Shown here: in pieces, positions 7,301 through 39,029 of the stretch
How the letters are laid out: each line of letters starts with the position of its first letter
Position numbering within the stretch: position 1 is the stretch's first letter
DNA from: a virus
Virus record (IMG/VR): IMGVR_UViG_3300032287_001394
Reading direction: 5' to 3' (one strand)
Length of the DNA: 64,000 nt
Made by a program: the position numbers and the translations under genes
The notes under the pieces: generated by a model
Database searches by the model: none
Told to the model about the DNA's origin: nothing
What the model saw: the letters and a program-made list of their open reading frames with translations, nothing else

Positions 7301-8696
7301 AACACTGACCACAGCACGAAACATCAATGGTGTCGGCTTTAATGGCAGTGCAGACATTAACATACCTACATTAACAGATGGTACCAACTCAATAAAGATC
7401 ACAGCAGTGCCAGCAGCACTAACTGGTGCTACCGGTGATGTTGTGGGTAGTGTGGCATTTGACAGCACCTACATTTATTATTGTTTCCAAGCATTCACAG
7501 GTACAAGCTATTCCTTGACAGTAATATCAGGCCTCGGTGAATTCTCAGAGCGTGTTAATGCCGGTTCTTCCGAACTTCGGACTGCAATAGTTGCAGCCTT
7601 TGCCGCTACACCTGCAGGATGGTCATATGGCGGATATCCTGTAAACAATATCACGGCCGCTTCCGGTTCCTCTATCAATATCTTTAGGGATTATGGTTCG
7701 CCAATCTCCAACGGCAACTCTTACACATTAATACAACCGCCAGCAACCGCCAACTGGAAAGCAACTCCTTGGGGGGCTATAACAAGTGCGGCAGCAGGAT
7801 CTTTGACTGGAAATACATTAGCCAGCGGTGTAACAGCAAGCAGTCTAACCAGTTTTGGTGCTACGCCAGCAATGACCAGTCCAGCAATTACCACAAGTCT
7901 AACAACACCAAGCACAAGTTTTGATTTAATCAATACTACTGCTACAACTGTAAACTTTGCTGGTGCCGCTACCACTTTAGGTGTTGGAGCAGGTACAGGC
8001 ACAACTACTATCAACAATAACCTGTCAATGGCCAGTGGCAGGACCATAGGCACAACTGCCACTGTCACAAGTAATCACGCAACGGCATTCAGTGCAGGCG
8101 ACAGTGCTATCAGCAATGTGGCATTGTCTGTGCCCAGAAATGCTGCCATTCGTGATCGTACCAACGGAGCCAGTGTAATATACTTTGATGTTAGCAATGG
8201 TGGAACCACTAACGGAGAATTCCAGTTCCGTAGTAGCAGTGCGTTTACCAATGTATTGACCATGAACACCACTGCGTTTAATGTTAATACCAATGCCGTT
8301 GTTACAGCAAGAACACCTAGCCTAGCAAGAACAGCATTCAATGCCGCAATGGGCACTGAACTTACTGTGGATAATATGCGTTTCCGCATAACAAATTCTG
8401 GGCTTGCTGGCATATTTCCCCAGGTTATTGGCAACGGTTCAGCGAGGAATCTTGCCTGGACAGTGGTGGCTGCAAGATCAGGCAGTGCAGTAACACAAGC
8501 AGGCAGCACTGGAACAATCGTAGCGGATAATGCCTGGACTACTTTATACAGTCTTGGCGGTATGGATAGTGCTGGCGACACTTTTACAGCTACCTTACAG
8601 GATAAAGCAGAAAGTCGTATCTATCGTGTTACATTTATGCGCAGTGATGATGGCAACACAACAGGTTATAATATTATAGCCGAAAGATTGTTGTAA
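4386..8696 (+). CDS. Collagen-repeat fibre / virion appendage protein
   Basis: 1436 aa; GGGEVNLRYLDDVD; long G-X-Y (GAT/GAS) tract; S/T/G-rich fibre-like C-terminal half. Confidence 0.75.
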   Translation: MTDLNELFKVIAEGKKQYEETDPIGQQIKQAKEHVKEDLSSLFAQLSTLKEDLEKELVVEEAKLVSLIDSDSIKRDAKNIVNEVFGQIQKPIITEEIPAQPVIHTPEVRAKQVDADVDKYLTDKSFQQPNPDLVTKNIDDIRNKIKFLEQAIGRVAAAGPGGGEVNLRYLDDVDRSTITDGWYLRYNATKKKFEFAEVISSGGNGATGPAGATGPGGGDTGATGITGSSGAQGASGLNGSTGPTGANGVSGASGTNGATGIQGASGTQGSTGVQGASGSTGLTGATGLTGASGPSGASGVNGSTGIQGTSGVQGASGSTGIDGASGATGLQGASGINGATGTSGASGVNGSTGISGATGIDGASGIQGASGSTGISGASGVGVQGASGSTGLTGATGIPGASGIGGATGALPDLPTGEPMGHTDRTQSIISFDDASRTFSISPVAASFEIWTRGVKRTITDTRQVTIPDTTGLYYIYFDPDGILQYRTTFFDWPNDCVTAYVYWNDVTNDAPFVADERHGIVLDWQTHEYLHRTRGAAIANGFDATNYIVNGDGSLDSHMQIDIASGTFFDEDLQVDIVNTNTPVANTWDQDLAGPARIPMFYINSAGGWVIDTPTNFPVKMGTLPKYNLYSGGVWTTPDIDNNKFGITFIIATNNINYPVIGIIGQNSHANQGDAEAVDFSELNLAGFPVVEMRPLYKLVYECKASYTNSVNARLKSIWDQRSFESTVSAIATYTDHGALGGLSDDDHPQYLLRTDAVSFVGATGATGIQGASGSTGLTGATGISGASGISGASGISGSASTLTGTSLATGIVSSSLTSVGTLTNLSVTNTITGSVSGNAGTVTNGVYTNSIGAVTDIMLAGSIANNKLTNSSITVNGTDISLGSSATILAANPNALTIGTGLSGTNYTGASAVTIALASGYGDTQNPYASKTANYFLAAPNGSNGVPTFRAIVAADILGTLNQNTTGSAATLTTARNINGVGFNGSADINIPTLTDGTNSIKITAVPAALTGATGDVVGSVAFDSTYIYYCFQAFTGTSYSLTVISGLGEFSERVNAGSSELRTAIVAAFAATPAGWSYGGYPVNNITAASGSSINIFRDYGSPISNGNSYTLIQPPATANWKATPWGAITSAAAGSLTGNTLASGVTASSLTSFGATPAMTSPAITTSLTTPSTSFDLINTTATTVNFAGAATTLGVGAGTGTTTINNNLSMASGRTIGTTATVTSNHATAFSAGDSAISNVALSVPRNAAIRDRTNGASVIYFDVSNGGTTNGEFQFRSSSAFTNVLTMNTTAFNVNTNAVVTARTPSLARTAFNAAMGTELTVDNMRFRITNSGLAGIFPQVIGNGSARNLAWTVVAARSGSAVTQAGSTGTIVADNAWTTLYSLGGMDSAGDTFTATLQDKAESRIYRVTFMRSDDGNTTGYNIIAERLL
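4990..5615 (+). repeat. Collagen-like G-X-Y coding repeat
   Basis: Roughly 200 codons of GAT/GAS/GxQ triplets; a second short tract near 6670-6785 includes a near-triple caggaataagtggtgctt. Confidence 0.9.
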
Positions 8697-9357: not shown

Positions 9358-10935
9358 ATGAAGAACTATAGACAACTCATAAAGGGTTTGCCTTCCAAGA
9401 CCGTCATCATGACAGTCGGAAGCTTTAACCCTCCTACCTCGGTCAACGAGATGGCATTCAAACTAGTAGATAAGCTAGTTGAATCCCATAATGCTGACCA
9501 CATAATCTACGTTACAGAAGACAAGGACAACTTACCTATTGATCGTAAGCTGCACTTCCTTGAGCTCATGTTTGGTGCTATGAACTTTAAGCCATTGAAC
9601 GAGTCAAACCTAACTTCTGAACTAATCAGATTAAAGAGTAAGTATAAAGATGTTATCGTAGTATCTTCAGAAGATAAAGCCAAGCTATATGAGTCATTAC
9701 AAGTGGTTACTACAAGCAACGACTTAGACCATTCTAAGATCAAGTCATATGTAACAAAAGGCGACTTTGCCTCATTTAAGAAACAGATGCCTTCTACACT
9801 AAGAGAGCTGGATGCTCGTAGGCTAATGAACGAGATGAGACAAGTTACTGGCCTCGAGTTACTCAAAGAAGAAGTCAAGTTCACAGTCGATGCACTCAGA
9901 GAGAAGTATTTTAAAGGTCAGATCTACCACATAGGTGATATCGTTGAGTCTGCTGGACAACAGTACGAGATCATGGATCGTGGTTCAAACTACCTTGTGG
10001 TAGTTAATAATACTGGTGACCTATCACGCAAATGGATAAAAGACGTAAAGTTAGTAGAAGCATGCTGGTCTGGATATAAACAAGTTGGCACTAAGAAAAA
10101 AGGCAGCAGAACGGTCCCTAACTGTGTACCAGAATCTGTATTAAACCCTGCAGATCCACATAAAGACTATGCTGAGAAGAGCAAGACTCTACAAGACTTG
10201 TCACGTAACAAAGACGTAGATCAAAAATCTGTACAACAAAGACGCTTAGATCTAGACAAAGAATACGGTAAACTTAAAGAAGAAGTATTTAGCTATAAAG
10301 GCTATGTACCTAAGAACCTTAACAGTGAGTTAGTAGAAGCATTCAAGCTTGTCGCTGTAGACTCTAAAGATCCTGTAGCAATGCTTAATGCTATCAAAAC
10401 AACTGATACATACTTACAACTACATGGTAAGATTGGTGACAATCCAGATATCAATCAGCTTAAGACATATAAAGATGCTCACATTAAAGCTACTGAAGCC
10501 TTACAAAAGATTGGTGTATACAATGCTGAAGAAGAGAAGCCAGATACTAAGTTAGCAAGAAACGTATTAACATATCAAGACTTCATGAAAGCTGGCAAAG
10601 AACCTGTGCCTGAAAATACAGAGAAATATGTAGGTGAACCTCATACGACTCCAGGTCATACACTTGCTACACGTCAACATCTACGTAGACAAAAGGTTGC
10701 ATATGTAAATGAAGCTGCATCAGTTACAGATGGAGAAGTAGAAGGACAAGTGGTTACTAAGATTAAACCGTTACCACCTGAACTAACTCCACCGCCTGAT
10801 GAACCAGGTAAACAAAGAGGTAAAGGCAATAGTGCTTTCTTTGAGAAGAAGAATAAGAAAGTAGAGAAAGAAGCTCTAGACTACCTTGACTTAGATTCAT
10901 GGTTAAGACAACAATCACAACAGGCACACGGATAA
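9358..10935 (+). CDS. Degenerate cytidylyltransferase-like domain plus appended small modules
   Basis: GSFNPPTSVN (HxGH motif lost); LREKYFKGQIY segment; ACWSGY...VPNCVPE module. Confidence 0.65.
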   Translation: MKNYRQLIKGLPSKTVIMTVGSFNPPTSVNEMAFKLVDKLVESHNADHIIYVTEDKDNLPIDRKLHFLELMFGAMNFKPLNESNLTSELIRLKSKYKDVIVVSSEDKAKLYESLQVVTTSNDLDHSKIKSYVTKGDFASFKKQMPSTLRELDARRLMNEMRQVTGLELLKEEVKFTVDALREKYFKGQIYHIGDIVESAGQQYEIMDRGSNYLVVVNNTGDLSRKWIKDVKLVEACWSGYKQVGTKKKGSRTVPNCVPESVLNPADPHKDYAEKSKTLQDLSRNKDVDQKSVQQRRLDLDKEYGKLKEEVFSYKGYVPKNLNSELVEAFKLVAVDSKDPVAMLNAIKTTDTYLQLHGKIGDNPDINQLKTYKDAHIKATEALQKIGVYNAEEEKPDTKLARNVLTYQDFMKAGKEPVPENTEKYVGEPHTTPGHTLATRQHLRRQKVAYVNEAASVTDGEVEGQVVTKIKPLPPELTPPPDEPGKQRGKGNSAFFEKKNKKVEKEALDYLDLDSWLRQQSQQAHG

Positions 10936-20479: not shown

Positions 20480-21487
20480 ATGTTATACATTGATGCAAAA
20501 TACGTAGGTCAAATCTCCTACAAACTCCGCAACTTTAAAAAGAAGAATGACTACTATTGGAACTTTAGTTGTCCGATATGTGGTGACTCCAAGAAGAACG
20601 AACTCAAGGCTCGAGGCTTTGTCTATAAGAACCAAGACAGACTAGTCTATAAGTGTCATAACTGTGGTGTATCCACATCTATCGGCGGGTTATTAAAGCA
20701 ACTTGATCCGTTAGTCTATAATGAATATGTGTTAGAACGCTATAAAGAAAATACTTCTAAACACATGCCTCATGCTAATGTCAAAGAAGTGGTACCAGAG
20801 ATTGCACCTGAAATAAGCACTGATCTTATCAAAGCTGGTGCACAGTCTATACAATCTAATCAAGAAGCATTACAATACGTGATGTCTCGTAAGATCCCAG
20901 CTGAACGCTGGAAAGATCTATATTATGTGCCTAAGTTTAAAGAGTTTGTTAATAACCTTAAGTATACATTTCCCGATACAACATACGATGCACCAAGATT
21001 AATCATCCCATTCTTTGATGAAGACGGTAAGTGTATAGCGTTTCAAGGCAGAGCATTCGGCAAAGAGATGCCTAAGTATGTGACCATCAAGCTTAATGAG
21101 AAGAAAGAAAAGATCTATGGTCTCGATCGTATGGATCATAACAAACGAATCTATGTGACAGAAGGTCCTATCGATTCTATGTTTATCCCTAATGCTATCG
21201 CTGTCGCTGGTGCAGGGTTCGATACTAAGTTCATCGATGCTATCAAAGATAATGCTACATTGATAATGGATAACGAACCAAGGTCTAAAGAGATTACCAA
21301 GTTTATTGAAAAGCTTATAGATAATAATTACACAGTATGTCTATGGCCAGATACCATACAAGAGAAAGATATCAATGAGATGGTGTTAGCAGGAAAACCT
21401 ATAGAGTCAATCATGGATACTATAAATACAAATACCTTCCAAGGCATGGAAGCTAAATTGCAATTTACTCAATGGAGAAAGTGTTGA
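20480..21487 (+). CDS. 61: DNA primase gp61
   Basis: CPICGDS...CHNC zinc finger; EGPIDS and DNEPR TOPRIM motifs. Confidence 0.95.
   Translation: MLYIDAKYVGQISYKLRNFKKKNDYYWNFSCPICGDSKKNELKARGFVYKNQDRLVYKCHNCGVSTSIGGLLKQLDPLVYNEYVLERYKENTSKHMPHANVKEVVPEIAPEISTDLIKAGAQSIQSNQEALQYVMSRKIPAERWKDLYYVPKFKEFVNNLKYTFPDTTYDAPRLIIPFFDEDGKCIAFQGRAFGKEMPKYVTIKLNEKKEKIYGLDRMDHNKRIYVTEGPIDSMFIPNAIAVAGAGFDTKFIDAIKDNATLIMDNEPRSKEITKFIEKLIDNNYTVCLWPDTIQEKDINEMVLAGKPIESIMDTINTNTFQGMEAKLQFTQWRKC
21421..21428 (+). promoter_or_regulatory. Possible late promoter for galE
   Basis: TATAAATA inside the 3' end of primase. Confidence 0.5.
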
Positions 21488-22353
21488 AAGTATTAATCAC
21501 AGGAGTTACTGGTTATATTGGCTCTCACCTAGCAAAGGTGTTATATGAAGCAGGTCACCACATCGTAGGTCTAGATTTAGAATGGAAGAAGCATAATGAT
21601 GTAAGTAGATACTGTCATCGCATCCTTATCAAAGACGTTACAAAGCACATATGTGATGAAGACTACGATGTCATCGTCCATCTTGCTGGATTAATTCAAG
21701 TAGAAGAAAGCGTTGCGCACCCAACAAAGTATTACTCAACAAATCTTGGTGGTACTGTTAACATGTTAAGGCAGAACATTAATGGTGAACCACACTTTAT
21801 ATTTGCATCTACCGCTGGTGCATTCGATGCACAGTCACCGTATGCAAGGTCTAAGCTAGCAGCAGAAGACGTTATCAAAGAAAAATCAAAGAACTATACT
21901 ATATTTAGATTCTTTAACGTAGCAGGTTCTGATGGTATGCATAGACAAGTTGGTAGAGCATCACACTTAATTCGCATCGCTGCTGAAGCTGCAGCTGGTA
22001 AACGAGACTATATGTCAATTTATGGAGAAGACTATGATACACCAGATGGTAGTTGTGTTAGGGATTATATCCACGTTGTGGATCTTGTTAACGCTATTCG
22101 TGATACGATTAAGCATGGTGCCTTTAACACGCCATATGAATGTATTGGTTCGGGCCAAGGATACTCGGTCAAAGAAGTAGTTAAGGCCATGAAAGACGTT
22201 ACAAATCAAGACTTTACTGTAAAGATGGCCGGTCGTAGAGATGGAGATCCGGCTTCTTTAGCAATTGATAATCAATTCAATCTGTTGCATCCACAATATC
22301 AACTAAAAGATATGTGTCTGTCGGCATATAATATTGAGAACAGAAAGGTATAA
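21472..22353 (+). CDS. galE: UDP-glucose 4-epimerase
   Basis: GVTGYIG Rossmann motif, YARSK, RFFNVAG, DGSCVRDYIHVVDL; exact start uncertain. Confidence 0.9.
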   Translation: MEKVLKVLITGVTGYIGSHLAKVLYEAGHHIVGLDLEWKKHNDVSRYCHRILIKDVTKHICDEDYDVIVHLAGLIQVEESVAHPTKYYSTNLGGTVNMLRQNINGEPHFIFASTAGAFDAQSPYARSKLAAEDVIKEKSKNYTIFRFFNVAGSDGMHRQVGRASHLIRIAAEAAAGKRDYMSIYGEDYDTPDGSCVRDYIHVVDLVNAIRDTIKHGAFNTPYECIGSGQGYSVKEVVKAMKDVTNQDFTVKMAGRRDGDPASLAIDNQFNLLHPQYQLKDMCLSAYNIENRKV

Positions 22354-27158: not shown

Positions 27159-28139
27159 ATGAAAAGAGTATTGATCACTGGAGGTGCTGGATTCATAGCG
27201 CACCATGTAATAACATATATCTTAAACAAAACTGACTGGAACATAGTCACCTTAGATAGGTTAGATTTTTCAGGTAATTTAAACCGATTAGCTGAAGTAG
27301 TACCTAATGATGGCAGAGTAACAACTGTTTTTCATGATCTTAAAGCAGAATTAAATCCACAAATCATAAATGCAATTGGTGATATTGATATCATTTTACA
27401 TCTTGCAGCAGGTTCTCATGTAGACCGGTCTATTCAATTCCCAATGGAGTTTGTAATGGATAATGTTGTTGGTACATGTAATATTTTAAATTATGCAAGG
27501 TCATTGCCAAACTTAGAACGATTTATCTACTTTTCAACAGATGAAGTATTCGGTCCAGCTCCACAAGGTATTAACTATGGAGAATATGATCGATATAATT
27601 CATCTAACCCATACTCAGCTACCAAAGCTGGTGGAGAAGAACTCGCTGTAGCATTTGCTAATACATATGATTTACCATTATACATCACTCACACCATGAA
27701 TGTGTTTGGTGAAAGACAACATCCTGAAAAATATATTCCAGTTTGTATTAAACGCGTAAGAGATGGTGAAAAGATTACTATTCATTCAGATCCTACTAAA
27801 ACAATCCCAGGTAGTAGATATTATATTCATGCTTCTGAAGTAGCATCAGCATTATTATTCATACTTAACTTAAAAGATCAATCTAATGGATCTAAGTTTA
27901 ATGTAGTAGGTAAAGAAGAAATAAATAATCTACAGTTGGCTCAAATAATTGCTGATGTTCAAGGTAAACAACTCATCTATGAATTATCAGATTTCCATTC
28001 TGCTAGACCTGGGCACGACTTAAGGTATGCATTATCTGGAGAATATATGAGAAATCTTGGATGGGAACCACAAATATCACTAAAAGATCGAATATCTCAA
28101 GTTGTTTCTTGGACATTAGAAAACCATAGGTGGTTATGA
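27159..28139 (+). CDS. rfbB: dTDP-glucose 4,6-dehydratase
   Basis: GGAGFIA, SHVDRSI, STDEVFG, YSATK, RPGHDLRY. Confidence 0.9.
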   Translation: MKRVLITGGAGFIAHHVITYILNKTDWNIVTLDRLDFSGNLNRLAEVVPNDGRVTTVFHDLKAELNPQIINAIGDIDIILHLAAGSHVDRSIQFPMEFVMDNVVGTCNILNYARSLPNLERFIYFSTDEVFGPAPQGINYGEYDRYNSSNPYSATKAGGEELAVAFANTYDLPLYITHTMNVFGERQHPEKYIPVCIKRVRDGEKITIHSDPTKTIPGSRYYIHASEVASALLFILNLKDQSNGSKFNVVGKEEINNLQLAQIIADVQGKQLIYELSDFHSARPGHDLRYALSGEYMRNLGWEPQISLKDRISQVVSWTLENHRWL

Positions 28140-29155
28140 ACGATAAAGTAATGACAGGTGTAATGTTCGGCGCAGCTATATCGCTGTCTGCTATCGCAGC
28201 GTGGTATTCAATCGCAGGACTAACAGCAATATTTGCTGCTGCAGTAGTGCCTATCATTATCATGGGTGGAATCTTAGAAGTATCTAAGTTAGTCGTAGCC
28301 TCATGGTTATATCGCAATTGGACAGAAGTCCCTAATACATTTAAAGTATACTTCACTGTAGCCGTTGTTATTTTAATGATGCTTACTTCTATGGGTATCT
28401 TTGGCTTCTTGTCTAAGGCACACTTAGATCAAGCAGTGCCAGCTGGTGACGTAACAGCGCAAGTTACTATATACGATGATAAGATCATGACAGAACGAGA
28501 TAATATAGCTGCTGCTCGTAAAGCTATATCCCAAATGGATGCACAAGTCGATCAGAAGCTATCAAGATCTACTGATGAGAAGGGTGCAGATAAAGCAGTA
28601 CAGATCAGACGTTCACAATCATCAGAACGTAAGAAGTTACAGAATGAGATATCAGAATCACAAAAGGCTATCGTTAAGCTACAAACAGAGCGTGCACCTA
28701 TAGCATCTCAAGCCCGTAAGATCGAGGCTGAGGTAGGTCCTATTAAGTATATCGCAGCATTAATCTATGGTGATACTCTTGATGCTAATGTACTTGAAAA
28801 GGCTGTCCGTTGGGTCATCATCATGATCGTACTGGTATTTGATCCATTGGCAGTACTCATGCTTGTGGCTGTCAACTGGTCTCTAAAAAAAAGACAACCT
28901 GAAGTAGAACTAGAAAATATAGAGCCTTGGCTTAATTATCCTATTGATCTACCAAAAAGGAAAGCAAAGCCTAAGAAGCGTAAATGGCTTGAACCAGAAC
29001 CAGAGTCTACACCTCTACCAGAACCAGAGGATCGTTATGATCCTGATGAGTATGTATCCCCAGCCAAGACCATAGAGCAAGAAGTAGACGAGCTCAATAA
29101 GCCTTTGAATTCATTGGAAAGATTGAAGCAGAAATACGGCGAACCTAACATCTAA
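28136..29155 (+). CDS. Multi-TM coiled-coil membrane protein
   Basis: TM segments, TSMGIFGFLSKAH, EVGPIKYIA, VFDPLAV. Confidence 0.75.
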   Translation: MNDKVMTGVMFGAAISLSAIAAWYSIAGLTAIFAAAVVPIIIMGGILEVSKLVVASWLYRNWTEVPNTFKVYFTVAVVILMMLTSMGIFGFLSKAHLDQAVPAGDVTAQVTIYDDKIMTERDNIAAARKAISQMDAQVDQKLSRSTDEKGADKAVQIRRSQSSERKKLQNEISESQKAIVKLQTERAPIASQARKIEAEVGPIKYIAALIYGDTLDANVLEKAVRWVIIMIVLVFDPLAVLMLVAVNWSLKKRQPEVELENIEPWLNYPIDLPKRKAKPKKRKWLEPEPESTPLPEPEDRYDPDEYVSPAKTIEQEVDELNKPLNSLERLKQKYGEPNI

Positions 29156-29159
29156 TCAT

Positions 29160-29167
29160 TATAAATA
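29160..29167 (+). promoter_or_regulatory. Late promoter heading the curli locus
   Basis: TATAAATA 4 nt before ATG 29172. Confidence 0.8.
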
Positions 29168-29171
29168 GAAT

Positions 29172-29450
29172 ATGGGAGAGATATTCAAACTTATAGCAGA
29201 CGTAGGATTTCCAATAGCCGGAGCATGTGCGGCAGGTTACTTTGTATTCCTTACAGTTAGGTTTATCCTTGAAGGTGTTACTGGATCCGTAAAAGGTATG
29301 TCTGGTATCATCAAAGCTTTGGATAGAAGAGTAGCAGCTATGAATCATGATGTTATTCGCATCGACACTAAAGTATCTCATGCATTAGGTATCCCACCAG
29401 ATTTAGATAGAATTGCAAGAGCTGAGCAATCGGACGCTAGGAGAGACTAG
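29172..29450 (+). CDS. Small single-TM protein (paralog 1)
   Basis: VGFPIAG...GYFV TM followed by a helical tail. Confidence 0.75.
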   Translation: MGEIFKLIADVGFPIAGACAAGYFVFLTVRFILEGVTGSVKGMSGIIKALDRRVAAMNHDVIRIDTKVSHALGIPPDLDRIARAEQSDARRD

Positions 29451-29719
29451 TGGAAGACTTAGCAGATTTAATTAATAAGTATGGGTTTCCCATTATTGCG
29501 GCAGGCGGGTTAGGGTACTTCGTCTACTATGTTTGGAAATGGGTAACTGAAGAAATTGACCCTGTTATAGGTGAATCTAATAAAGTTTTAATTGAACTAA
29601 TCGATCGTATCAGGATGTTAGATAACGACTTGATTAGACTCAATCAAAAAGTGAACGTCATTTTATCTTTAAGAGAGAAGGAACAAAATGAAGCTCACGA
29701 CAAGGATACTAAGTCTTAG
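29450..29719 (+). CDS. Small single-TM protein (paralog 2)
   Basis: YGFPIIA...GYFV; DRIRMLDNDLIRL mirrors DRRVAAMNHDVIRI of paralog 1. Confidence 0.75.
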   Translation: MEDLADLINKYGFPIIAAGGLGYFVYYVWKWVTEEIDPVIGESNKVLIELIDRIRMLDNDLIRLNQKVNVILSLREKEQNEAHDKDTKS

Positions 29720-30140
29720 TATTTTATTGACAGGTTTTGCTGTTCAAGCACAACCGCTCCCTGATTATACATTCAAGAGCCCATCATTTAACGGTAATGG
29801 GTACTCTGCACACGTCTTGACTATTGAGAACCAAGAACACAATCGCAGAGATGCTATTGAAAAAGAAATCCAAGCAGCTCTTGATAAAGAAAAGAACGAA
29901 GCAAAGAATACGAATATATCTAAGTTCCTTAACAACCTAGAATCCCGTATCTATGCACAGATTTCTCAAAACGTGGCGACTGCCATGTTTGCAGATGGTG
30001 GTAGTAATGCCGGCACATTAAACTTTGAAGGCAACATCATCAATTGGACAAAGAGCTCTACTGAGATAACTCTTAACGTGACTGATTATGTAGGTAGCAG
30101 CACGTCTATATCAATACCATTAGGATCATTTCAGTTCTAA
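29688..30140 (+). CDS. csgF: Curli assembly protein CsgF
   Basis: Signal peptide, YTFKSPSFNGNG N-terminal CsgF-type motif, adjacent to csgG. Confidence 0.85.
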   Translation: MKLTTRILSLSILLTGFAVQAQPLPDYTFKSPSFNGNGYSAHVLTIENQEHNRRDAIEKEIQAALDKEKNEAKNTNISKFLNNLESRIYAQISQNVATAMFADGGSNAGTLNFEGNIINWTKSSTEITLNVTDYVGSSTSISIPLGSFQF

Positions 30141-30961
30141 TGAAACATTTTTTAATAATACTATCGCTTCTAGTTTTATCTGGTTGCGCGACTTCTACAG
30201 TTATTAAAGATGTAGAGAAACCTCTCATCTCTAAAAACTTAATGCAAAAGGAATTCGACATGCTTCCTGGCCCACATGGCAAGAAGCTATCTATTGCTGT
30301 ATATAGTTTTGCTGATAAGACTGGTCAGAGAAAACCAAGTGCTAACGTAGCTCAACTATCGACGGCAGTTACACAAGGTGCTGATGCATTCCTCATCAAG
30401 GCATTACAAGATGTGGGTAAAGGTCAGTGGTTTGATGTTGTCGAACGAGTTGGCTTGGATAGTCTAACTAAAGAGCGTCAGCTGATTCGCCAAATGCGCG
30501 AAGCTTACGAGGGTGACAAAGCCAAGCCTCTATCTCCCATGATGTTTGCGGGAATTATATTAGAAGGTGGTATCGTAGGATATGATTCATCGACAAGGTC
30601 TGGTGGATCTGCGATGAGGATGTTGGGCATTGGCCCACAAACACAATATTCTGAGGATATAGTAACTATCAGCTTAAGAGCTGTTAGTGTGAATTCAGGA
30701 AAAGTTTTAGTATCAGTGACAGTGCAGAAGACGGTTTATTCTGCTGCTGACAGCTTAGCGATGTTGAAGTTCGTTAAGAATGGAACACAAGCATTTGAAT
30801 TGGAGACAGGATTAACTATCAACGAGCCAGGTACATTAGCTGTTAAAGCTGCTGTTGAGGCTGCAGTTGTTGAGCTTATTAAAGAAGGAGAGAAGAAAGG
30901 TGTATGGGAGTTCTCATATCCTTATGTCGCTCCAGAAAATAAAATAGAGGAGACAAAATAG
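30140..30961 (+). CDS. csgG: Curli secretion channel CsgG
   Basis: LSGC lipobox; AVYSFADKTGQRK, STAVTQGA, WFDVVERVGLDSLTKERQLIR, EGGIVGYD. Confidence 0.95.
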   Translation: MKHFLIILSLLVLSGCATSTVIKDVEKPLISKNLMQKEFDMLPGPHGKKLSIAVYSFADKTGQRKPSANVAQLSTAVTQGADAFLIKALQDVGKGQWFDVVERVGLDSLTKERQLIRQMREAYEGDKAKPLSPMMFAGIILEGGIVGYDSSTRSGGSAMRMLGIGPQTQYSEDIVTISLRAVSVNSGKVLVSVTVQKTVYSAADSLAMLKFVKNGTQAFELETGLTINEPGTLAVKAAVEAAVVELIKEGEKKGVWEFSYPYVAPENKIEETK

Positions 30962-31744
30962 ATGAACAACTATTTAAAGATAATGGTTGCGATGATATTT
31001 TCGGCGTCTGCATTCGCAGCAGACAATAGTATCTACATTGACCAATCAGGTGATAATTCTACTATTGATATCACTCAAACGGGTGCTGGTAACGTTATTC
31101 GTGGGATTCAAGGAGTTGGTACTGGTAATACAACGCCAGCTAAGATCTATGGTAATAATACTGCTATAGATATCCAACAAGTTGGTTCTACTAACACGTT
31201 AAACTTAGGTGTGAATACATCTACTGCAACTGGTAGAGCATACGGTATTGACTTAACATACTACGTGACTGGTAATTCTGGTACTGCTACTATTAACAGT
31301 AATAACTCTGGTACAGGTACTTCTGGATCTAACTTTATTGACGTAAGACAAACAGGCAACTCTGCAGGTATTAACTTAAATATCTTAGGTTCTAAGAATG
31401 ACTTTACTGCTGTAACATCAGGTGGTTCTGGTAATAGTATCACAGCATCAATTACTGCTGACGAGACTGTTAATAATATATCAATGACTGGTGGTGGTAG
31501 CAATACATTAACACAGACTACTACAAGTAATAAAGCAACAAACAATATTACTACACTTGGTGCAAGTAATGGTATAGTGTTAACACAGTCTGGTACAGCT
31601 GGAACTAATGGTCATGCATTTACATTAAATCTAACTGGTTCAAGTAATACATTAAACGTAACACAATCAGGTACTATTGATACCACAGTGAACTTACTTA
31701 GCAATGGTAGTGGTAATGCATGGAACATCACAACTGGAAATTAA
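30962..31744 (+). CDS. Curlin-repeat protein (CsgA/CsgB-like)
   Basis: Signal peptide then repeated N-x5-Q-x-G-x2-N units (NSIYIDQSGDNSTIDITQTGAGN). Confidence 0.8.
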   Translation: MNNYLKIMVAMIFSASAFAADNSIYIDQSGDNSTIDITQTGAGNVIRGIQGVGTGNTTPAKIYGNNTAIDIQQVGSTNTLNLGVNTSTATGRAYGIDLTYYVTGNSGTATINSNNSGTGTSGSNFIDVRQTGNSAGINLNILGSKNDFTAVTSGGSGNSITASITADETVNNISMTGGGSNTLTQTTTSNKATNNITTLGASNGIVLTQSGTAGTNGHAFTLNLTGSSNTLNVTQSGTIDTTVNLLSNGSGNAWNITTGN

Positions 31745-32835
31745 TAGTTCTACTCTTATTCGCTGTTAATTCATACGCAGCGATAGGAACTATTACTGAA
31801 CAAAGTAATACCGCTCCTAGCATATCGCGAAAGAGCGGTACACTTTCAGGCACAAAAGGTACAGGCGTTGAGATGTCTGATACCATCAAAACAACTCAAG
31901 GTAAAGTAGGTATTACCTTTGAAGATAAAACAAAAGTAGACATCACAGAAAACTCGAAGTTAGTTATCGATGAGTTCGTCTATGATCCAAATTCTAAGAA
32001 GGGCGGAAAGTTAGCCGTTAACATTGCATTAGGAACTGCACGATATGCTTCTGGTCAAATTGCGAAGAACAATCCGCAGAGCGTGGCGATTAATACTCCT
32101 ACGGCTACTGTCGCTGTCCGTGGTACAGACTTTACTGCTACTGTTGATGAGTTAGGTAGATCCACATTCATACTATTGCCTTCATGTCCAAAAGGTTGGA
32201 TTGACATAGAAAAAGACTGTAAGACTGGTAAGATCGAAGTTATTACGGATGAAGGTAAGGTTCTATTAGATAAAGCATTCCAAGCTACGAGGGTAGATTC
32301 AAAAGAAACAAGGCCATTCAAACCAGTCATCGTTAATCTGACAGAAGACATGATTAATAACCTATTGGTATTATCTCCTCCAAAAGAACTAAGAGAGACT
32401 GATAAAGATAGACAGCGAAATAGAGAATCTGCAAAGGGAGCACTTGATGTTGACTTCCTTGCAGAGAATAAACTAGTAGACGTACTAGCTAAAGAAGAGA
32501 AAGAGATGTACCAAGATAAGTTATCTCGTAACCTGTTAGATAATGACTTCCTTGCAAACGTATTAGACATCATTAATGCGCAACTAGCAGCACAACTAGA
32601 TTTACTTGGTAAGACAAAGACAGGTTTATTACCTGATTATGTACCAACTTCAGGTGTTACAGTTGAGGTCGATGATTTACAAGTTACATTATGTCGTGAG
32701 GCTGGTGGAGATACTCAATGCATTACGACTCCAAAAAACCAAAATACTACTGTGACACAGACACAAGGTCCAGTAGAAATTAAGAATAGGATTAATAACG
32801 GTGGCGGCACTACTATCAATACTACTCAGAATTAG
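31720..32835 (+). CDS. Exported FecR-domain protein
   Basis: Signal peptide; DTIKT...ITFEDKT...ENSKLVIDEFVYDP...TPTATVAVRGTDF. Confidence 0.85.
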   Translation: MEHHNWKLIVLLLFAVNSYAAIGTITEQSNTAPSISRKSGTLSGTKGTGVEMSDTIKTTQGKVGITFEDKTKVDITENSKLVIDEFVYDPNSKKGGKLAVNIALGTARYASGQIAKNNPQSVAINTPTATVAVRGTDFTATVDELGRSTFILLPSCPKGWIDIEKDCKTGKIEVITDEGKVLLDKAFQATRVDSKETRPFKPVIVNLTEDMINNLLVLSPPKELRETDKDRQRNRESAKGALDVDFLAENKLVDVLAKEEKEMYQDKLSRNLLDNDFLANVLDIINAQLAAQLDLLGKTKTGLLPDYVPTSGVTVEVDDLQVTLCREAGGDTQCITTPKNQNTTVTQTQGPVEIKNRINNGGGTTINTTQN

Positions 32836-34069
32836 TCTTGTATTCTTATTAATATTTAGTACTGTGGCTCAGGCTATAACTTACTCTCCTAATGGGACAT
32901 CAGGATTAAATCTTGTTTATAATGGTAATGATGATGATAATTCTTATACTGTCAATCTGCCTTGGTCAATTAATTTTTTAGGTACTAACTATAGTTCTGT
33001 TTATGTTGGTACAAATGGATATATCACTTTATCCTCACCTAATTCTACTTACTCAGGATTCTCTCCTTCCAATCCAGCTGGTCCACATATAAGCATATAT
33101 CCCGCAGATCGTAGACTATATAAATTGTATTATGCGCAAATAGATGCAGGTACTGCTCAAGCACGATTTGTTATCAGAGCGCAGGGTGTTGATTATTCTA
33201 ATGCCGCGGTCACCTATATATGGGAGGTTCATTTTTATCCAGGTTCATCATATTTTGATATCTACTTTGTAGATGCACCATCATCAGGCAACGCTGGAAC
33301 TACAGGTATTAGTAATGGATCTACTTATGTTTCAACGTTTACCACAACTGAATTAACAGGTATTCGTATTAATGCTAATGGAACACTTGATACCGGTGCA
33401 CCAGCGTATAGTTCATCTATCACTATTGCACAACAAGCACGTAAGAACTCTGAGACTGCTCAAAGGACATCTCAATCTGGTAATGAAATACAGATTGAGC
33501 AGATAGGTGATAATAACAACATTACGATAAGACAAGGTGTTAACGTTACTGGTAAGAATAGGATTGAGTTATACTCTAATGGTAATTATAATACGCTTAA
33601 CTTAAATCAAGGTTATACTACAACAGGAACAGTATCAATAGGAGATAGTAATAACCATTATCTTAATTTAAACTTAATAGGCAATAATAACACAGTAACA
33701 AAACAACAGACTGGTACAAATAACTTTTTAGAGACAACTATAAGTGGTAACAATAATAATGTTACTAATCTTCAACAGGGTACTAGTGGTAAGATATTAT
33801 TTCAGAGTGTGAGTGGTAATAGTAATACAGTGACTACTAATCAGAAGGATTCTGGTCAGCATTACTTGGATCTTAAGTTAACTGGGAATGGTCATAATGT
33901 AGGTGTAACTCAACAAGGAACAGGTAACCACGCTGCTACGATTGACTTGACTAATTCAGGCGGTGCAGCAACACTTAACCTTAACCAGTTAGGATCTACA
34001 AATCAGATATATAGTATACAACAAAGCTGTGTTAATGCTGCAGGCTGTTCAACAAACATTAGCCAATGA
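32801..34069 (+). CDS. Secreted protein: N-terminal globular domain plus C-terminal curlin repeats
   Basis: DDNSYTVNLPWSINFLG...VGTNGYI domain; NEIQIEQIGDNNNITIRQG-type repeats; C-terminal CVNAAGC. Confidence 0.75.
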   Translation: MAALLSILLRISLVFLLIFSTVAQAITYSPNGTSGLNLVYNGNDDDNSYTVNLPWSINFLGTNYSSVYVGTNGYITLSSPNSTYSGFSPSNPAGPHISIYPADRRLYKLYYAQIDAGTAQARFVIRAQGVDYSNAAVTYIWEVHFYPGSSYFDIYFVDAPSSGNAGTTGISNGSTYVSTFTTTELTGIRINANGTLDTGAPAYSSSITIAQQARKNSETAQRTSQSGNEIQIEQIGDNNNITIRQGVNVTGKNRIELYSNGNYNTLNLNQGYTTTGTVSIGDSNNHYLNLNLIGNNNTVTKQQTGTNNFLETTISGNNNNVTNLQQGTSGKILFQSVSGNSNTVTTNQKDSGQHYLDLKLTGNGHNVGVTQQGTGNHAATIDLTNSGGAATLNLNQLGSTNQIYSIQQSCVNAAGCSTNISQ

Positions 34070-34207: not shown

Positions 34208-34215
34208 TATAAATA
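34208..34215 (+). promoter_or_regulatory. Late promoter
   Basis: TATAAATA 6 nt before ATG 34222. Confidence 0.75.
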
Positions 34216-34221
34216 AACAAA

Positions 34222-34965
34222 ATGAAAAAGTATAAAACCATTTGCATTTCCGATACACATCTTGGTTCTAAGGATGCAAAGGCTGATTTACTTAATAACT
34301 TCCTTAAGAACCATGAGTGTGATAACCTATTTTTAGTAGGCGATATCATAGATGGTTGGAAGATCCAACAGAATAAATGGAAGTGGAAGCAAAGTCATAC
34401 TAACGTTATCCGTAGGATATTAGGTTATGCTAAACGCGGAACTAAAGTTACGTATGTGACAGGTAATCATGATGAGTTTATTAGACCATTTGTTAATCAA
34501 TTTTCTCTTGGTTCTATTACTATATGCAACCAAGCAGAGTACAGAGGCATTGATGGAAATCTATTCTTAGTAACACATGGCGACATGTTTGATGGCATTA
34601 CAAGAGTTGGCAAATGGATCGGGTTTCTTGGCGATACAGCTTATGACTGTGTATTATGGATCAACACTAAGTTTAATTACATAAGACATAGGTTAGGGTT
34701 TGGTTATTGGTCGTTAAGTAAGTTTCTTAAACATCAAGTAAAGAAAGCGATAGATTTTGTATTCAAATTCGAAGAAAACCTTGCAGGATACTGCGAACGA
34801 AAAAACTTTGACGGAGTTATTTGCGGGCATATCCATACTGCATCGATTAAGTCTATCAATGGAATAATCTATATGAACGACGGAGATTGGGTAGAATCAT
34901 GTTCAGCTCTAGTAGAACATGAAGATGGTAAATGGGAAATAATTTATTGGAATAAAATAATATGA
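34222..34965 (+). CDS. plcP: PlcP-like phospholipase C (LpxH-related metallophosphoesterase)
   Basis: SDTHLG, GDIIDGW, GNHDE, HGD, YWSLSKFLK, CGHIH, NDGDWVESCSALVEH. Confidence 0.8.
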   Translation: MKKYKTICISDTHLGSKDAKADLLNNFLKNHECDNLFLVGDIIDGWKIQQNKWKWKQSHTNVIRRILGYAKRGTKVTYVTGNHDEFIRPFVNQFSLGSITICNQAEYRGIDGNLFLVTHGDMFDGITRVGKWIGFLGDTAYDCVLWINTKFNYIRHRLGFGYWSLSKFLKHQVKKAIDFVFKFEENLAGYCERKNFDGVICGHIHTASIKSINGIIYMNDGDWVESCSALVEHEDGKWEIIYWNKII

Positions 34966-35093
34966 AAGTAAAAAAATTAGTACGCAAGATGTATCTAGCA
35001 TGTGTTAGACACCAAAAGAAGAAGCAAAAGAAACTTTGGTTTAAAGCATTGAAGAAAAGTTTACAACATAAGAAGACGCAAATCATACAATGA
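34962..35093 (+). CDS. 43-aa very basic peptide (not in ORF track)
   Basis: MKVKKLVRKMYLACVRHQKKKQKKLWFK...; ATGA overlaps on both sides. Confidence 0.65.
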   Translation: MKVKKLVRKMYLACVRHQKKKQKKLWFKALKKSLQHKKTQIIQ

Positions 35094-36082
35094 AGATATT
35101 AATAGTAACAGACAATTTAAGAGATCAAGTCAATGGCGTTGTCACCACATACAAAAATATTGAGGATCATGCTGTTTCTGCTGGCCATAGTATTGTTTAT
35201 TTTGATCCCCGGCAGTTCCGTCATATTGATTGTCCTTTTTATCCTGAGGTCAAACTTTCCATTCCTTCGTACTTTATCAGTAAGATTAAGAAGATGGGTG
35301 CGGATCGCATTCACATCGCGACAGAAGGTCCGCTAGGACTATTTGCAAAGTTCTACTGTGACGCAAACAAGATACCATACACCACAGCGTATCATACTAA
35401 GTTTCCAGAATTCTTAAAAAAATTACTATGGATACCTACATCTATCACATATAGGTATCTTAAATGGTTTCACAAGTATTCTAAGGCTACACTAGTCCCT
35501 TCACAATCAATGAAAGATGAGCTAGAATCAAAAGGATTTAAAAACTTAGTTACTTGGACAAGAGGTGTATCACACGAACTAATAACTAAGAGGACTACTT
35601 CTAAAAACAATCAACCACTAAAAGTATTATACGTAGGGCGCGTATCTAAAGAAAAGAACTTAGAAGACTTATGTAAGTTACAAGATGTCTATGATATCAC
35701 TATTGTAGGTGATGGCCCAACATTAAATGATTTAATTCGCAAGTATAGAAAAGTTTATTTTACTGGATATAAGTTTGGAGAAGAGTTATCTAAGATCTAT
35801 TCTGAGAACGATGTATTTGCCTTCCCATCTTTAACAGATACATTTGGTATAGTCATCATTGAAGCAATGTGTAATGGATTGCCAGTGGCAGCATATAGAG
35901 TAACCGGTCCACAGGATATAGTCGAGTATGGAGTTACAGGATACCTAAGTATGTATGGTAATGGGTTAGATTCTTCTATAGAAAAGTGTAGGTCATTAGA
36001 TAATATTAAAGTCCAAGATCTATCTGTTAATAAGTGGACGTGGAAAAACTGTTATGATATATTCATTAACACAATAAAATAA
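35090..36082 (+). CDS. GT4 glycosyltransferase, Agt-like glycolipid synthase
   Basis: QVNGVV, IHIATEGPLG, TTAYHTKFPE, YVGRVSKEKN, FPSLTDTFGIVIIEAM. Confidence 0.85.
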   Translation: MKILIVTDNLRDQVNGVVTTYKNIEDHAVSAGHSIVYFDPRQFRHIDCPFYPEVKLSIPSYFISKIKKMGADRIHIATEGPLGLFAKFYCDANKIPYTTAYHTKFPEFLKKLLWIPTSITYRYLKWFHKYSKATLVPSQSMKDELESKGFKNLVTWTRGVSHELITKRTTSKNNQPLKVLYVGRVSKEKNLEDLCKLQDVYDITIVGDGPTLNDLIRKYRKVYFTGYKFGEELSKIYSENDVFAFPSLTDTFGIVIIEAMCNGLPVAAYRVTGPQDIVEYGVTGYLSMYGNGLDSSIEKCRSLDNIKVQDLSVNKWTWKNCYDIFINTIK

Positions 36083-36118: not shown

Positions 36119-38131
36119 ATGAAAAAAATATTACTAAGCCCATGGTTGGCTCTATTAACGTTAACATTATTAATAGCGATCAGAGTTACTGACCCATCAT
36201 TTGTAGAGTCAGTTAGACTAAGATACTTTGATACATTAATTACAAGTAAGCAACAAACTATTTCAAAACAGGTTCATGTCGTAAACATTGATGATAAGTC
36301 AATTGAACGACTAGGGCAATTCCCATTTCCAAGGACACAATATGCAAATATTATCGAAGATCTTTATGCTCGTGGCGCTGGCCTCGTTGTTTTTAATCTG
36401 TTTATGCCTGATAGTGATAGGTTTAGACAAGATGCTGGACTTGCTGATACCATCGCTAGACACCCTGTGGTCTTACCTCAGGTAGCTACATCAGACAAAC
36501 AAAAACCTGGTGCATTTAGACCAGGAGTTTCAGAGATTGGTGGTAAAGCTTCTGACTTTGCAGTAAATTATCCAGGCATTCAAGCCAATATATCATTATT
36601 TAACAGCAAAGCTGCTGGAATAGGAGTCGTAAATGTATTACCTGAAATTGATGGTGTTGTTCGTCGTATCCCTATGGTCGTTGCAAGTGAAGGCCAACTG
36701 TACCCAAGTATCAGTCTTGAAACAATGCGTGTTGCAGTCGGAGACCCAAGTTTCCAAGTTAAATCTACCGATGCAGGAATCGAAGCTGTTCGAATCCCCA
36801 AGTTCGCAAAGATTACCACTGACACCGTTGGCCGAATATGGGTCGACTGGTCGTCTAATCCAATTGAACACTCCGTTGTGGACCTCCCAAAATCATTCAA
36901 CGGAGGTATCGTCATCGTTGGGCTTACCGCTCGGGGACTTAATAACCCAGTCGCAACTGCCAGAGGTGCAATCTATCCGCATTATGTACAAGCTTCTGTA
37001 CTAGATACACTAACATCAGGCACCAGCATATCACGTCCTGACTGGGCAGATGGTGCTGAGATATTAGGATTAGTATTACTTTCTATCATATCAATTTTAT
37101 TAACAAGGTGGACATATGGATTTATTCCTGTCATTGCTATTCTCGGTGGTGTTTATTTCGGCAGTAGGTATATTTTCCAAGGACATTCGCTTTTACTGGA
37201 TGTTAGCTTTCCTATTATTGGGCTTGTGTTGGTTTACTTACACAGCTATACAGTTAAGTTCCTTAGCGAGTTAAGCCAGAAGTTACAGATCAAGAAACAG
37301 TTTGGTTCTTATGTAAGTCCTATCATCGTTGAACGTTTACAAAAAAATCCAGATCTTATTAAACTAGGTGGTGAAGAGAAGATGCTGACCGCAGTCATGA
37401 CTGACATGCGTAACTTTACTGGACTTGGCGAGAAGTATGGTGCAGACGTAGAAGGTTTTACTGCTATCATGAACCAATACATGACAGCGATCGCTCAACC
37501 GGTATTTAAGAATGATGGATGTTTAATTAAGTTTATTGGTGATGCATCACTACATATTCATGGTGCTCCGTTAGATGATGATAAACATGCATATCATGCA
37601 GTTAAGACGACGCTTGAAATGATTGAAGCAGTCGAAGAGTTTAATAAGCATTTAGAATCTATTGGCAAACCTCCTGTCGGTATGGGTGCTGGTGTCAATA
37701 CAGGTAAGATCTTAGTAGGTAACATCGGATCTGAAGGTAAGATGGGCTATGACGTGTTAGGTGATCCTGTCTCAGTAGCTGCACGATTAGAGAGTCAAAC
37801 AAAATCATATGGCGTATTGATGATCCTTGGTCCTGATACAGCTGAAGCAGTTAAAGATGACTTTGATGTCGTATGGTTAGATAACATCGCTGTTAAAGGT
37901 AAGACAGTTGGATTAGACATCTACACAGTCGGTAAGACTATCAAACATAAACATGAAGAGTATAAGAAAGAGTATACTCGCGGTAATTGGAAACGTGCCA
38001 CAGAATGGGCATTAGAACTCATCGACGATAAAGACGTCACCATCAAAGACTATTATCATAAGATGATAGAGAGAATGAATCAAGGTCTCCCAGCTAACTG
38101 GGATGGCACTTATCACGCTACCTCTAAGTAG
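36119..38131 (+). CDS. CHASE2-domain class III adenylate cyclase
   Basis: TM, CHASE2 (VNIDDKSI..LGQFPFPR, DGVVRRIP), 3 TM, cyclase domain (TDMRNFT, KFIGDA, YDVLGD..SVAARLE, VKGK). Confidence 0.9.
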   Translation: MKKILLSPWLALLTLTLLIAIRVTDPSFVESVRLRYFDTLITSKQQTISKQVHVVNIDDKSIERLGQFPFPRTQYANIIEDLYARGAGLVVFNLFMPDSDRFRQDAGLADTIARHPVVLPQVATSDKQKPGAFRPGVSEIGGKASDFAVNYPGIQANISLFNSKAAGIGVVNVLPEIDGVVRRIPMVVASEGQLYPSISLETMRVAVGDPSFQVKSTDAGIEAVRIPKFAKITTDTVGRIWVDWSSNPIEHSVVDLPKSFNGGIVIVGLTARGLNNPVATARGAIYPHYVQASVLDTLTSGTSISRPDWADGAEILGLVLLSIISILLTRWTYGFIPVIAILGGVYFGSRYIFQGHSLLLDVSFPIIGLVLVYLHSYTVKFLSELSQKLQIKKQFGSYVSPIIVERLQKNPDLIKLGGEEKMLTAVMTDMRNFTGLGEKYGADVEGFTAIMNQYMTAIAQPVFKNDGCLIKFIGDASLHIHGAPLDDDKHAYHAVKTTLEMIEAVEEFNKHLESIGKPPVGMGAGVNTGKILVGNIGSEGKMGYDVLGDPVSVAARLESQTKSYGVLMILGPDTAEAVKDDFDVVWLDNIAVKGKTVGLDIYTVGKTIKHKHEEYKKEYTRGNWKRATEWALELIDDKDVTIKDYYHKMIERMNQGLPANWDGTYHATSK

Positions 38132-38952: not shown

Positions 38953-39029
38953 GGGCCTATAGCTCAGTTGGTTAGAGCAGAGGACTCATAATCCTTTGGT
39001 CCATGGTTCGAGTCCATGTGGGCCCACCA
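38953..39029 (+). tRNA. tRNA with CAU anticodon, probably Ile2 (lysidine) type
   Basis: GGGCCTA/TGGGCCC acceptor stem, D arm, CTCATAA loop, GGTTCGAGTCC T arm, encoded CCA. Confidence 0.93.

Follow-up and report, generated by a model that had tools for sequence, protein, structure and literature searches.

A curli-type locus with an exchangeable head cassette in a T4-like phage whose DNA recurs in lake metagenomes

Seven curli-type genes in a T4-like phage genome

The window, i.e., the whole 64,000-nucleotide stretch of viral DNA analyzed here (IMG/VR virus record IMGVR_UViG_3300032287_001394), carries a curli-type secretion locus of seven open reading frames (ORFs), all on the plus strand. 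They encode, in order, two small membrane peptides, TM1 (29172-29450, 92 amino acids [aa]) and TM2 (29450-29719, 89 aa), a CsgF homologue with a signal peptide (29688-30140, 150 aa), a CsgG channel lipoprotein (30140-30961, 273 aa), a secreted curlin-repeat protein named CurA (30962-31744, 260 aa), a secreted FecR-domain protein (31720-32835, 371 aa), and CurB (32801-34069, 422 aa), which is assigned by its model and its family profile and is composed of an N-terminal head and a curlin-repeat tail. Neighboring ORFs abut or overlap by 1-35 nucleotides (nt). The signal peptides of CsgF, CsgG, CurA, the FecR protein, and CurB are of the Sec type and were read by eye from the translations, with no predictor. 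A previous sequence-only reading of this DNA had proposed these seven genes with their strand, order, and coordinates, their overlapping or abutting arrangement, and the signal peptides of the last five products, all of which is borne out by the ORF positions, family matches, and translations. The extent of 29160-34069 that it gave to the locus holds for the genes lying there, but not for the end coordinate, since the module includes a downstream gene for a CHASE2 sensor fused to a class III adenylate/guanylate cyclase (36119-38131, plus strand; Pfam CHASE2 2.5e-39, Guanylate_cyc 1.6e-16).

The same gene order was found in Pelagibacter phage HTVC008M (gp011-gp019), in Methylophilales phage Melnitz (gp97-gp104), in 10 IMG/VR loci, and in seven contigs of metagenome-assembled genomes (MAGs). 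HTVC008M and Melnitz, both Kyanoviridae, are the nearest cultured relatives, with protein identities of 28-47%. No near DNA match emerged when the locus was compared by megablast with 50,697 phage records, and relatives there are recognizable at the protein level only; a 159,934-bp contig carries one protein of the locus. In GenBank, gp016 of HTVC008M is named a "curlin-associated protein / CsgB" and gp101 and gp103 of Melnitz are named "curlin associated repeat proteins," and annotations for a FecR-domain protein and for an adenylate cyclase are present in both records.

The sequence-only reading took it as known that csgF and csgG alone had been reported from such phages. This is out of date, because Wittmers et al. 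(2022) have described a viral type VIII secretion system (T8SS) region with CsgA/B, FecR, a "histidine kinase," and an adenylate cyclase in podo- and myophages (PMC9599517). The proposal that the locus includes the subunits and not just the pore is right but was already published in that study. On gene content and order, we assign the locus to this published T8SS ("viral curli") region of HTVC008M- and Melnitz-like T4-like phages. An alphaproteobacterial origin of the region has been inferred from trees, and the viral genes were found at all 65 GOV2.0 stations and in metatranscriptomes, making up about 0.1% of the assembled viral proteins in GOV2.0 (PMC9599517). The uses proposed include aggregation or "sibling capture" and a superinfection shield, and the podophage versions are frequently without the cyclase and the second curlin gene (PMC9599517). 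According to Zaragoza-Solas et al. (2020; PMC7029224), the operon is absent from freshwater fonsimyophages.

The secretion pore

The CsgF homologue matches Pfam CsgF (2.3e-15; 57.4 bits against a cut-off of 25.8) over profile positions 16-132 of 132 and phrog_35372 (3.6e-54), and a single-sequence search of the PDB with it returned nothing significant. CsgG matches Pfam CsgG at 1.2e-47 and the E. coli CsgG chains at 2.5e-45 over residues 3-259, with its lipobox LSGC aligned to the E. coli lipobox. The presence of csgF and of csgG with an intact lipobox is therefore confirmed, and a CsgG lipoprotein implies that the host is diderm. According to our own reading of the alignment to E. coli CsgG, the constriction loop (30260-30300) has S, Q, and L in place of Y, N, and F, the channel-constriction residues of E. 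coli. The lining of the phage pore may thus differ from that of E. coli.

All plus-strand ORFs of at least 60 aa in 29172-34069 were assigned to other families, and none encodes a CsgE, CsgC, or CsgD of the enterobacterial type, in agreement with the earlier failure to recognize these genes. The alphaproteobacterial curli type likewise lacks CsgE, CsgC, and CsgD (PMC9599517); these proteins do not define the wider curli family.

CurA and CurB as predicted curlin-type solenoids

CurA has about 11 repeats of 22 residues. CurB consists of a signal peptide, the head (residues ~26-200), a linker helix, and the curlin-repeat tail (residues ~223-422), which ends in two invariant Cys. Both proteins show a periodicity of 22-23 residues and are rich in N, Q, G, S, and T. 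As the window's CurA and CurB lie below the Pfam cut-off, their assignment as curlins rests on relatives, profiles, and predicted folds. Homologues exceed the Curlin_rpt cut-off in HTVC008M (33.1 bits), in Melnitz (21.8 bits), and at the related loci L146 (32.5 bits) and L132 (45.9 bits), and a Curlin_rpt match at E ≤ 1 is present in 16 of 29 CurB relatives (best, 1.4e-5). The module is very common, as searches with CurA and CurB at E ≤ 0.001 recovered 624 and 1011 proteins, respectively. When family profiles were run against all PDB sequences, the top match of the CurA family (A2) was E. coli CsgA (8enq; E = 0.0027), and the sole match of the CurB family (A1) was the Pontibacter curlin (8c50; E = 0.005). 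Both profiles match curlin chains exclusively in the PDB; single-sequence PDB searches with CurA and CurB gave nothing significant.

AlphaFold2 models of CurA (m15a487792e26) and CurB (mcf0537e16b50) were obtained with a mean predicted local distance difference test score (pLDDT) of 69 and values of 80-94 in the repeat regions, and DSSP assigned two strands to each repeat of 22-23 residues. In VIA, an exhaustive structural comparison and the sole structure search that ranked CsgA first, the top match of the CurA model was Pontibacter korlensis CsgA (8c50_A; Z 21.2, root mean square deviation [rmsd] 9.0, 228 residues aligned; runner-up, Z 16.9). The same structure was the top match of residues 223-422 of CurB (Z 17.8, rmsd 8.5, 180 aligned), and the E. 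coli CsgA fibril (8enq_A) matched the CurB tail with 109 of its 111 residues aligned (Z 13.2, rmsd 8.4). CurA and CurB are thus predicted to be two-sheet beta-solenoids like the solved CsgA. Periodicity, profiles, the Pfam scores of relatives, and predicted folds agree with each other on two curlin-repeat proteins, as had been proposed, although the Pfam scores of the two proteins themselves do not reach the cut-off, and the cautious suggestion that they are candidate subunits of a fibre or beta-solenoid has gained support.

Across the loci, CurA matches CsgG in conservation and has retained its signal peptide. This fits CurA as the candidate main subunit and CurB as a putative accessory, head-bearing subunit. 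Cys 410 and Cys 416 of CurB (34028-34048, S-C-V-N-A-A-G-C-S), which close the curlin tail, do not vary among the 29 close relatives or in HTVC008M; a disulfide between them may staple the end of the solenoid as a cap.

The CurB head as a recombination cassette

Close relatives of CurB have the curlin-repeat tail in common and differ in their N-terminal 190-290 residues. By their heads, 41 full-length CurB proteins collected from IMG/VR loci can be sorted into six groups, and no similarity was detected from one group to another: PA14, F5/8 type C (discoidin), NIDO-like (a lead only), and three others. Pfam PA14 was found in one of these head types, which is the type carried by HTVC008M, and the F5/8 type C domain in another; Melnitz CurB has no head. 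Unrelated heads sit on tails that are 96-99% identical (the window and L109, L132 and L133, L162 and L170), and heads that are 82-86% identical sit on tails that are only 37-39% identical (L130 compared with L133 or L170). The exchange can also be seen in the DNA, as blastn homology of the window with L003, L004, and L005 ends at 32838-32851, inside the signal peptide, and resumes at 33398-33401, just before the linker helix. The stretch in which unrelated sequence replaces that of the window (32839-33398, plus strand, within curB) has sharp break points common to the three relatives.

The head type of the window gave no Pfam match at E ≤ 1 among 29 members, and its look-alikes in Atlas are NIDO domains (0.88-0.89), which is a lead only. 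The head types showed no similarity to any other ORF of the window, including the fibre gene (4386-8696). In the lake DNA runs X3 and X4, cover is sparse or absent at 32771-33504, which no contig spans; this was not counted as evidence.

On these comparisons, the head of CurB is a recombination cassette on a conserved tail. Most PA14 and discoidin domains belong to adhesins and glycosidases, where they bind carbohydrates. The exposed end of CurB appears to be under diversifying exchange, as in receptor-binding proteins, which suggests a ligand-binding role at the surface. The head cassette is not mentioned in the viral-curli papers cited here and is new.

The FecR protein and the CHASE2 cyclase

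The FecR-domain protein proposed for the locus is well supported (Pfam FecR 5.3e-9, 36.8 bits against a cut-off of 24; phrog_37870 3.8e-142). It belongs to a broad family, with 11586 cluster representatives at E ≤ 1e-3, and has a C-terminal extension of about 150 aa. The last ~35 residues (32730-32832) show a weak but conserved curlin-like strand-turn-strand pattern (I.Q.G ... N.GG...I.I.Q). Hidden Markov models of CurA and of the CurB tail match at this C terminus in most members, with domain E values of 0.06-5, which are not significant. The C terminus could dock on the fibre or the pore.

The CHASE2 cyclase gene adjoins the locus in every relative whose sequence extends far enough, either directly 3′ of curB or behind one or two variable genes. 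In the window, two genes stand between curB and the cyclase gene, encoding a calcineurin-like metallophosphoesterase (34222-34965, plus strand; Pfam Metallophos 5.8e-12) and a group 1 glycosyltransferase (35090-36082, plus strand; Pfam Glycos_transf_1 4.5e-22). The former gene is present in L003, L009, L010, and L011 and absent from L004-L008, and the latter is found among the relatives in L009-L011 only.

In a context survey of 72 bacterial loci with the FecR-family pattern, a FecR ORF abuts a CHASE2 ORF, with gaps of 1-27 nt and no curli genes nearby, in six. Five of the six pairs are from Campylobacterota (L045, L046, L050, L085, and L089), and their cyclases match that of the window at about 1e-60; four of these five cyclases were in the search profile, and L045 and L090 are independent of it. 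In Burkholderiales, "BiofilmReg" operons with LysM-FecR and a CHASE2 histidine kinase have been linked to biofilm control (PMC5192318). Because of these curli-free adjacent pairs and the Burkholderiales operons, we infer that FecR and CHASE2 might act as a sensor pair. The bacterial pairs are like the phage genes in that a secreted FecR protein is encoded with a CHASE2 membrane sensor. They differ in that FecR is directly upstream of CHASE2, whereas in the window the cyclase gene is two genes apart from curB, the neighbor of the FecR gene, and the pair is not adjacent. Moreover, the FecR proteins of the bacterial pairs are 230-260 aa long and lack the C-terminal extension of the phage protein, and their loci are without curli genes. 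Complex prediction for the periplasmic part of CHASE2 (residues 23-310) with mature FecR (residues 21-371) gave a score of 0.00, which is uninformative either way.

A counterpart in a bacterial chromosome

Two of the MAG contigs, L016 and L018, are labeled Caulobacteraceae, a label that depends on metagenome binning. They carry CsgF, CsgG, two curlin genes, FecR, and a CHASE2 cyclase, with identities to the window of 33-47%, and the FecR gene overlaps the cyclase gene. Both curlin genes precede FecR and neither product has a head, whereas in the window the FecR gene lies between the curlin genes. The flanks on L018 encode methylmalonyl-CoA mutase, acyl-CoA dehydrogenase, amidohydrolase, and DsbA, and no further gene of the window matches L018. 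TM1 and TM2 were not found with our queries within 10 kb of the Caulobacteraceae locus. At this locus, the pore, the curlins, FecR, and the CHASE2 cyclase make up a single cellular system. Since the six-gene core stands in a chromosome, we read it as a cellular system acquired whole by phages, as Wittmers et al. (PMC9599517) had concluded from trees, with TM1 and TM2 added on the phage side.

Alphaproteobacteria do not usually have this arrangement, because a CsgG homologue was present in seven of 401 genomes of an alphaproteobacterial sample and our queries found no FecR-type or CHASE2 ORF within ~9 kb of CsgG in any of the seven. A Metallophos gene lies just 5′ of csgF on L018 (5776-6636). 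The five other MAG contigs (L013-L015, L017, and L019) were binned as Pelagibacter, Legionellales, Pirellulales, Bacteroidetes, and Planctomycetaceae. Each has the complete module of the phage type, TM1 and TM2 included, and is probably a phage contig placed in a bacterial bin by mistake. On L014 and L015, TM1 and TM2 lie downstream as a pair on the opposite strand.

The membrane peptides

TM1 and TM2 match the same PHROG (phrog_18771; 1e-32 and 2e-35) and are therefore paralogues, as had been read from the letters. Their alignment (A6) contains two conserved paralogue families, each with one N-terminal membrane helix bearing GFPI, followed by a helical tail. TM1 is a single-pass peptide with the N-terminal GFPI motif and the conserved tail DRIARA..DARRD, and TM2 has the conserved motif DRIRMLDNDLIRL. 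By gene content, TM1 and TM2 are the only phage-specific parts of the module. Both have weak matches to the holin family phrog_4898 (E 0.0008-0.003). Pfam YvrJ was matched below threshold by 6 of 20 family members (best E, 0.09), and the Atlas look-alikes YvrJ (0.87) and BhlA-holin (0.84), also below threshold, are a lead only.

The small proteins of the viral region have been labeled "histidine kinase" (PMC9599517). Our analysis does not support this label: the peptides are 89-92 aa long, hmmscan of 20 family members at E ≤ 5 found no kinase domain or family (HisKA/DHp, HATPase_c), and the alignment A6 contains no invariant His.

Promoter, genome context, and habitat

A TATAAATA box of the T4-type late promoter consensus (29160-29167, plus strand) ends 4 nt 5′ of the ATG of TM1. 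Nine of 14 related loci share the box at -10 to -13 from the start codon of TM1, with variable flanks. In the whole window the motif occurs 13 times, compared with 9.8 expected, which is no enrichment, and scans for sigma-70 promoters and terminators remained at chance level. A T4-type late start at the TATAAATA box would give a nearly leaderless mRNA. Contigs from RNA libraries of one lake study (X19 and X20) partially cover TM1-TM2, CsgF, CsgG, CurA, the end of FecR, and downstream genes; as such contigs may include DNA and yield neither 5′ ends nor expression levels, they are no proof of transcription. Thus, the late promoter named in the sequence-only reading stands as a conserved box, and the description of the locus as late expressed rests solely on it. 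The spacing from box start to ATG (10-13 nt) recurs in the window at 250/262 and at 34208/34222, the latter being the metallophosphoesterase gene with its own TATAAATA.

The window has T4-type genes for the baseplate hub, tail tube cap, and tail fibre, together with genes for ribonucleotide reductase, primase, and RNase H. The baseplate genes are at 54-60 kb and the fibre gene is at 4386-8696, both more than 15 kb away from the curli genes, which sit among replication and envelope-sugar genes. Upstream sugar genes encode NAD-dependent epimerases/dehydratases (21472-22353 and 27159-28139) and cytidylyltransferase-like proteins (9358-10935). The curli module is located in an island of envelope-sugar genes, the content of which varies among relatives. 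Directly 5′ of TM1, a 341-aa membrane and coiled-coil protein is encoded (28130-29155; weak DUF4407 match, E 0.0015), which keeps this position in L003-L007, L009, and L010 and is not present there in HTVC008M or Melnitz. The only tRNA gene of the window, tRNA-Met (CAT), is at 38953-39029, where metagenome matches pile up from tRNA-like contigs of other organisms.

The DNA of this phage recurs in lake metagenomes and not in marine ones. Between 40 and 52% of its sampled words were found in lake or freshwater metagenome runs of 12 studies, and the two runs examined contain long near-identical pieces, such as one of 3494 nt with 35 differences in X3. The viral curli system thus does not seem limited to the marine phages of SAR11 and OM43, and it circulates in lakes. 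Consequently, of the phrase "marine T4-like phages" in the sequence-only reading, T4-like applies to the phage of the window and marine probably does not.

Discussion

We consider curli-type export of CurA and CurB, with exchangeable heads and with FecR/CHASE2 signaling through cyclic AMP (cAMP), to be the best explanation of the locus and give it a probability of roughly 55%. The genes would be transcribed from the T4-type late box, and Sec would carry the products over the inner membrane. The CsgG lipoprotein would form the outer-membrane channel with CsgF on top. CurA would leave unfolded and fold or stack outside as a curlin-type beta-solenoid, and the tail of CurB would join or anchor to the CurA structure with its exchangeable N-terminal head held outward. 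The infected cell would thereby display a ligand-binding, probably glycan-binding, surface. The FecR protein and the CHASE2 cyclase would signal from periplasm to cytoplasm, converting the state of the envelope or the fibre into a cAMP signal, and TM1 and TM2 might control timing or lysis.

Several observations weigh against this explanation. CurA scores 17.1 bits with Pfam Curlin_rpt (PF07012), below the cut-off of 20.7, and CurB has no match to this family. Foldseek against the PDB found no match for either model at E ≤ 0.001, generic beta-helices (SufD-like) reach Z 16-17 in VIA, close to the CsgA scores, and the rmsd to CsgA is high (8.4-9.0 Å). The head part of the CurB model is of low confidence (pLDDT 30-75), and a head of ~190 aa would need to pass through a channel for unfolded substrates. 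There is no CsgE at the locus, and the constriction residues of CsgG differ from those of E. coli. The podophage versions often lack the cyclase, and coupling to it is therefore not obligatory. In addition, no fibres on infected cells have been seen in these phage-host systems, and cells infected with Melnitz did not clump (Buchholz et al. 2022; PMC9004378).

The absence of clumping was reported by Buchholz et al. together with the argument that the pore has been repurposed (PMC9004378), a view which is also one of the options of Zaragoza-Solas et al. (PMC7029224). CsgG, with or without CsgF, would then serve as a pinholin- or secretin-like channel for lysis timing or as an import channel, and the repeat proteins would have an accessory role or be vestigial. 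The weak holin-like matches of TM1 and TM2 (phrog_4898, with the BhlA and YvrJ leads of Atlas), the lack of a CsgE gate, the unusual constriction, and the Melnitz result agree with such a role. However, CurA is conserved like CsgG in all loci and keeps its signal peptide, and the CurB tail is kept while the head is actively exchanged, which argues for selection on an exposed function. Moreover, the pore-plus-curlin set stands in a bacterial chromosome without phage genes, TM1, or TM2 and is therefore an independent secretion system. We regard a role of the pore alone as improbable. It is still less probable, to the point of being hardly credible, that the repeat proteins are virion fibres or decoration and that the head cassette is ordinary shuffling of receptor-binding proteins. 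Their predicted beta-helix fold does match phage tailspikes (Z 9-14), and exchange of lectin-like heads is typical of tail fibres, but the Sec-type signal peptides of CurA and CurB and the place of their genes among the replication and envelope-sugar genes, far from the baseplate and fibre genes, make a virion role unlikely. The curA and curB genes also invariably follow csgF-csgG, the head is unlike any other ORF of the window, and a homologous block lies between housekeeping genes of a bacterial chromosome.

It is also possible, although we favor it clearly less than export with display, that the module is mainly a trans-envelope sensor, in which a short curlin antenna on the surface, its head bound to an external ligand, would act through FecR on the CHASE2 cyclase. 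The resulting cAMP would adjust the course of infection, such as when lysis occurs, via TM1 and TM2. This would suit the FecR gene standing between the curlin genes with the cyclase gene near it in phage-type loci, the overlap of the FecR and cyclase genes in the Caulobacteraceae locus, and the curli-free FecR-CHASE2 pairs of Campylobacterota contigs and Burkholderiales (PMC5192318). The weak curlin-like end of the FecR family is in line with it, and the diversity of the heads suits ligand recognition. On the other hand, podophage versions that often lack the cyclase keep the pore and CurA (PMC9599517), CurA with ~11 repeats and its CsgG-like conservation looks structural, and the contacts among the parts are hypothetical. 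A sensor of this kind is compatible with curli-type export and display and not exclusive of it.

Within curli-type export, a further proposal concerns CurB, which may be a second "receptor-binding protein" borne by the cell, with a constant tail in a phage-made fibre and a head exchanged by recombination among at least six unrelated modules, some of them of lectin type (PA14, discoidin, NIDO-like, and others). We put this forward tentatively, as the less probable side of an uneven question. If it is true, the infected cell, not the virion, carries a strain-matched adhesin that captures neighboring host cells or particles or feeds the FecR/CHASE2 cAMP sensor.

Considering the published viral curli region, what is new here is the head cassette, the chromosomal counterpart, the curli-free FecR-CHASE2 pairs, and the occurrence in lakes. 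The head cassette speaks for ligand binding at the cell surface, and together these additions point to surface ligand binding that may be coupled to cAMP signaling. If infected planktonic cells grow adhesive fibres, the models of encounter rate, aggregation, and carbon export would change for very abundant bacteria.

Comparison with known curli systems

The viral T8SS of pelagiphages, including podophages of the HTVC023P type, is composed like that of the window of one or two small membrane proteins, CsgF, CsgG, a curlin, FecR, a curlin, and a CHASE2 cyclase, and CsgE, CsgC, and CsgD are likewise unannotated in its records. The published pelagiphage cases are marine, whereas the DNA of the window recurs in lake and freshwater metagenomes. 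Compared with HTVC008M and Melnitz, the window has two extra genes between curB and the cyclase gene, and the three phages differ in the CurB head, which is of a type without a Pfam match in the window, a PA14 domain in HTVC008M, and absent in Melnitz.

With the curli of bacteria such as E. coli and Pontibacter korlensis, the phage module has in common CsgG, CsgF, secreted Q/N/G-rich repeats of 22-23 residues, and a predicted solenoid. The sequence likeness of the subunits to CsgA is marginal (profile E, 0.003-0.005), and the phage subunits are longer, with ~9-11 repeats compared with five in E. coli CsgA. The phage module is without CsgE, CsgC, and CsgD and adds FecR, a CHASE2 cyclase, two membrane peptides, and a head on one of the two subunits.

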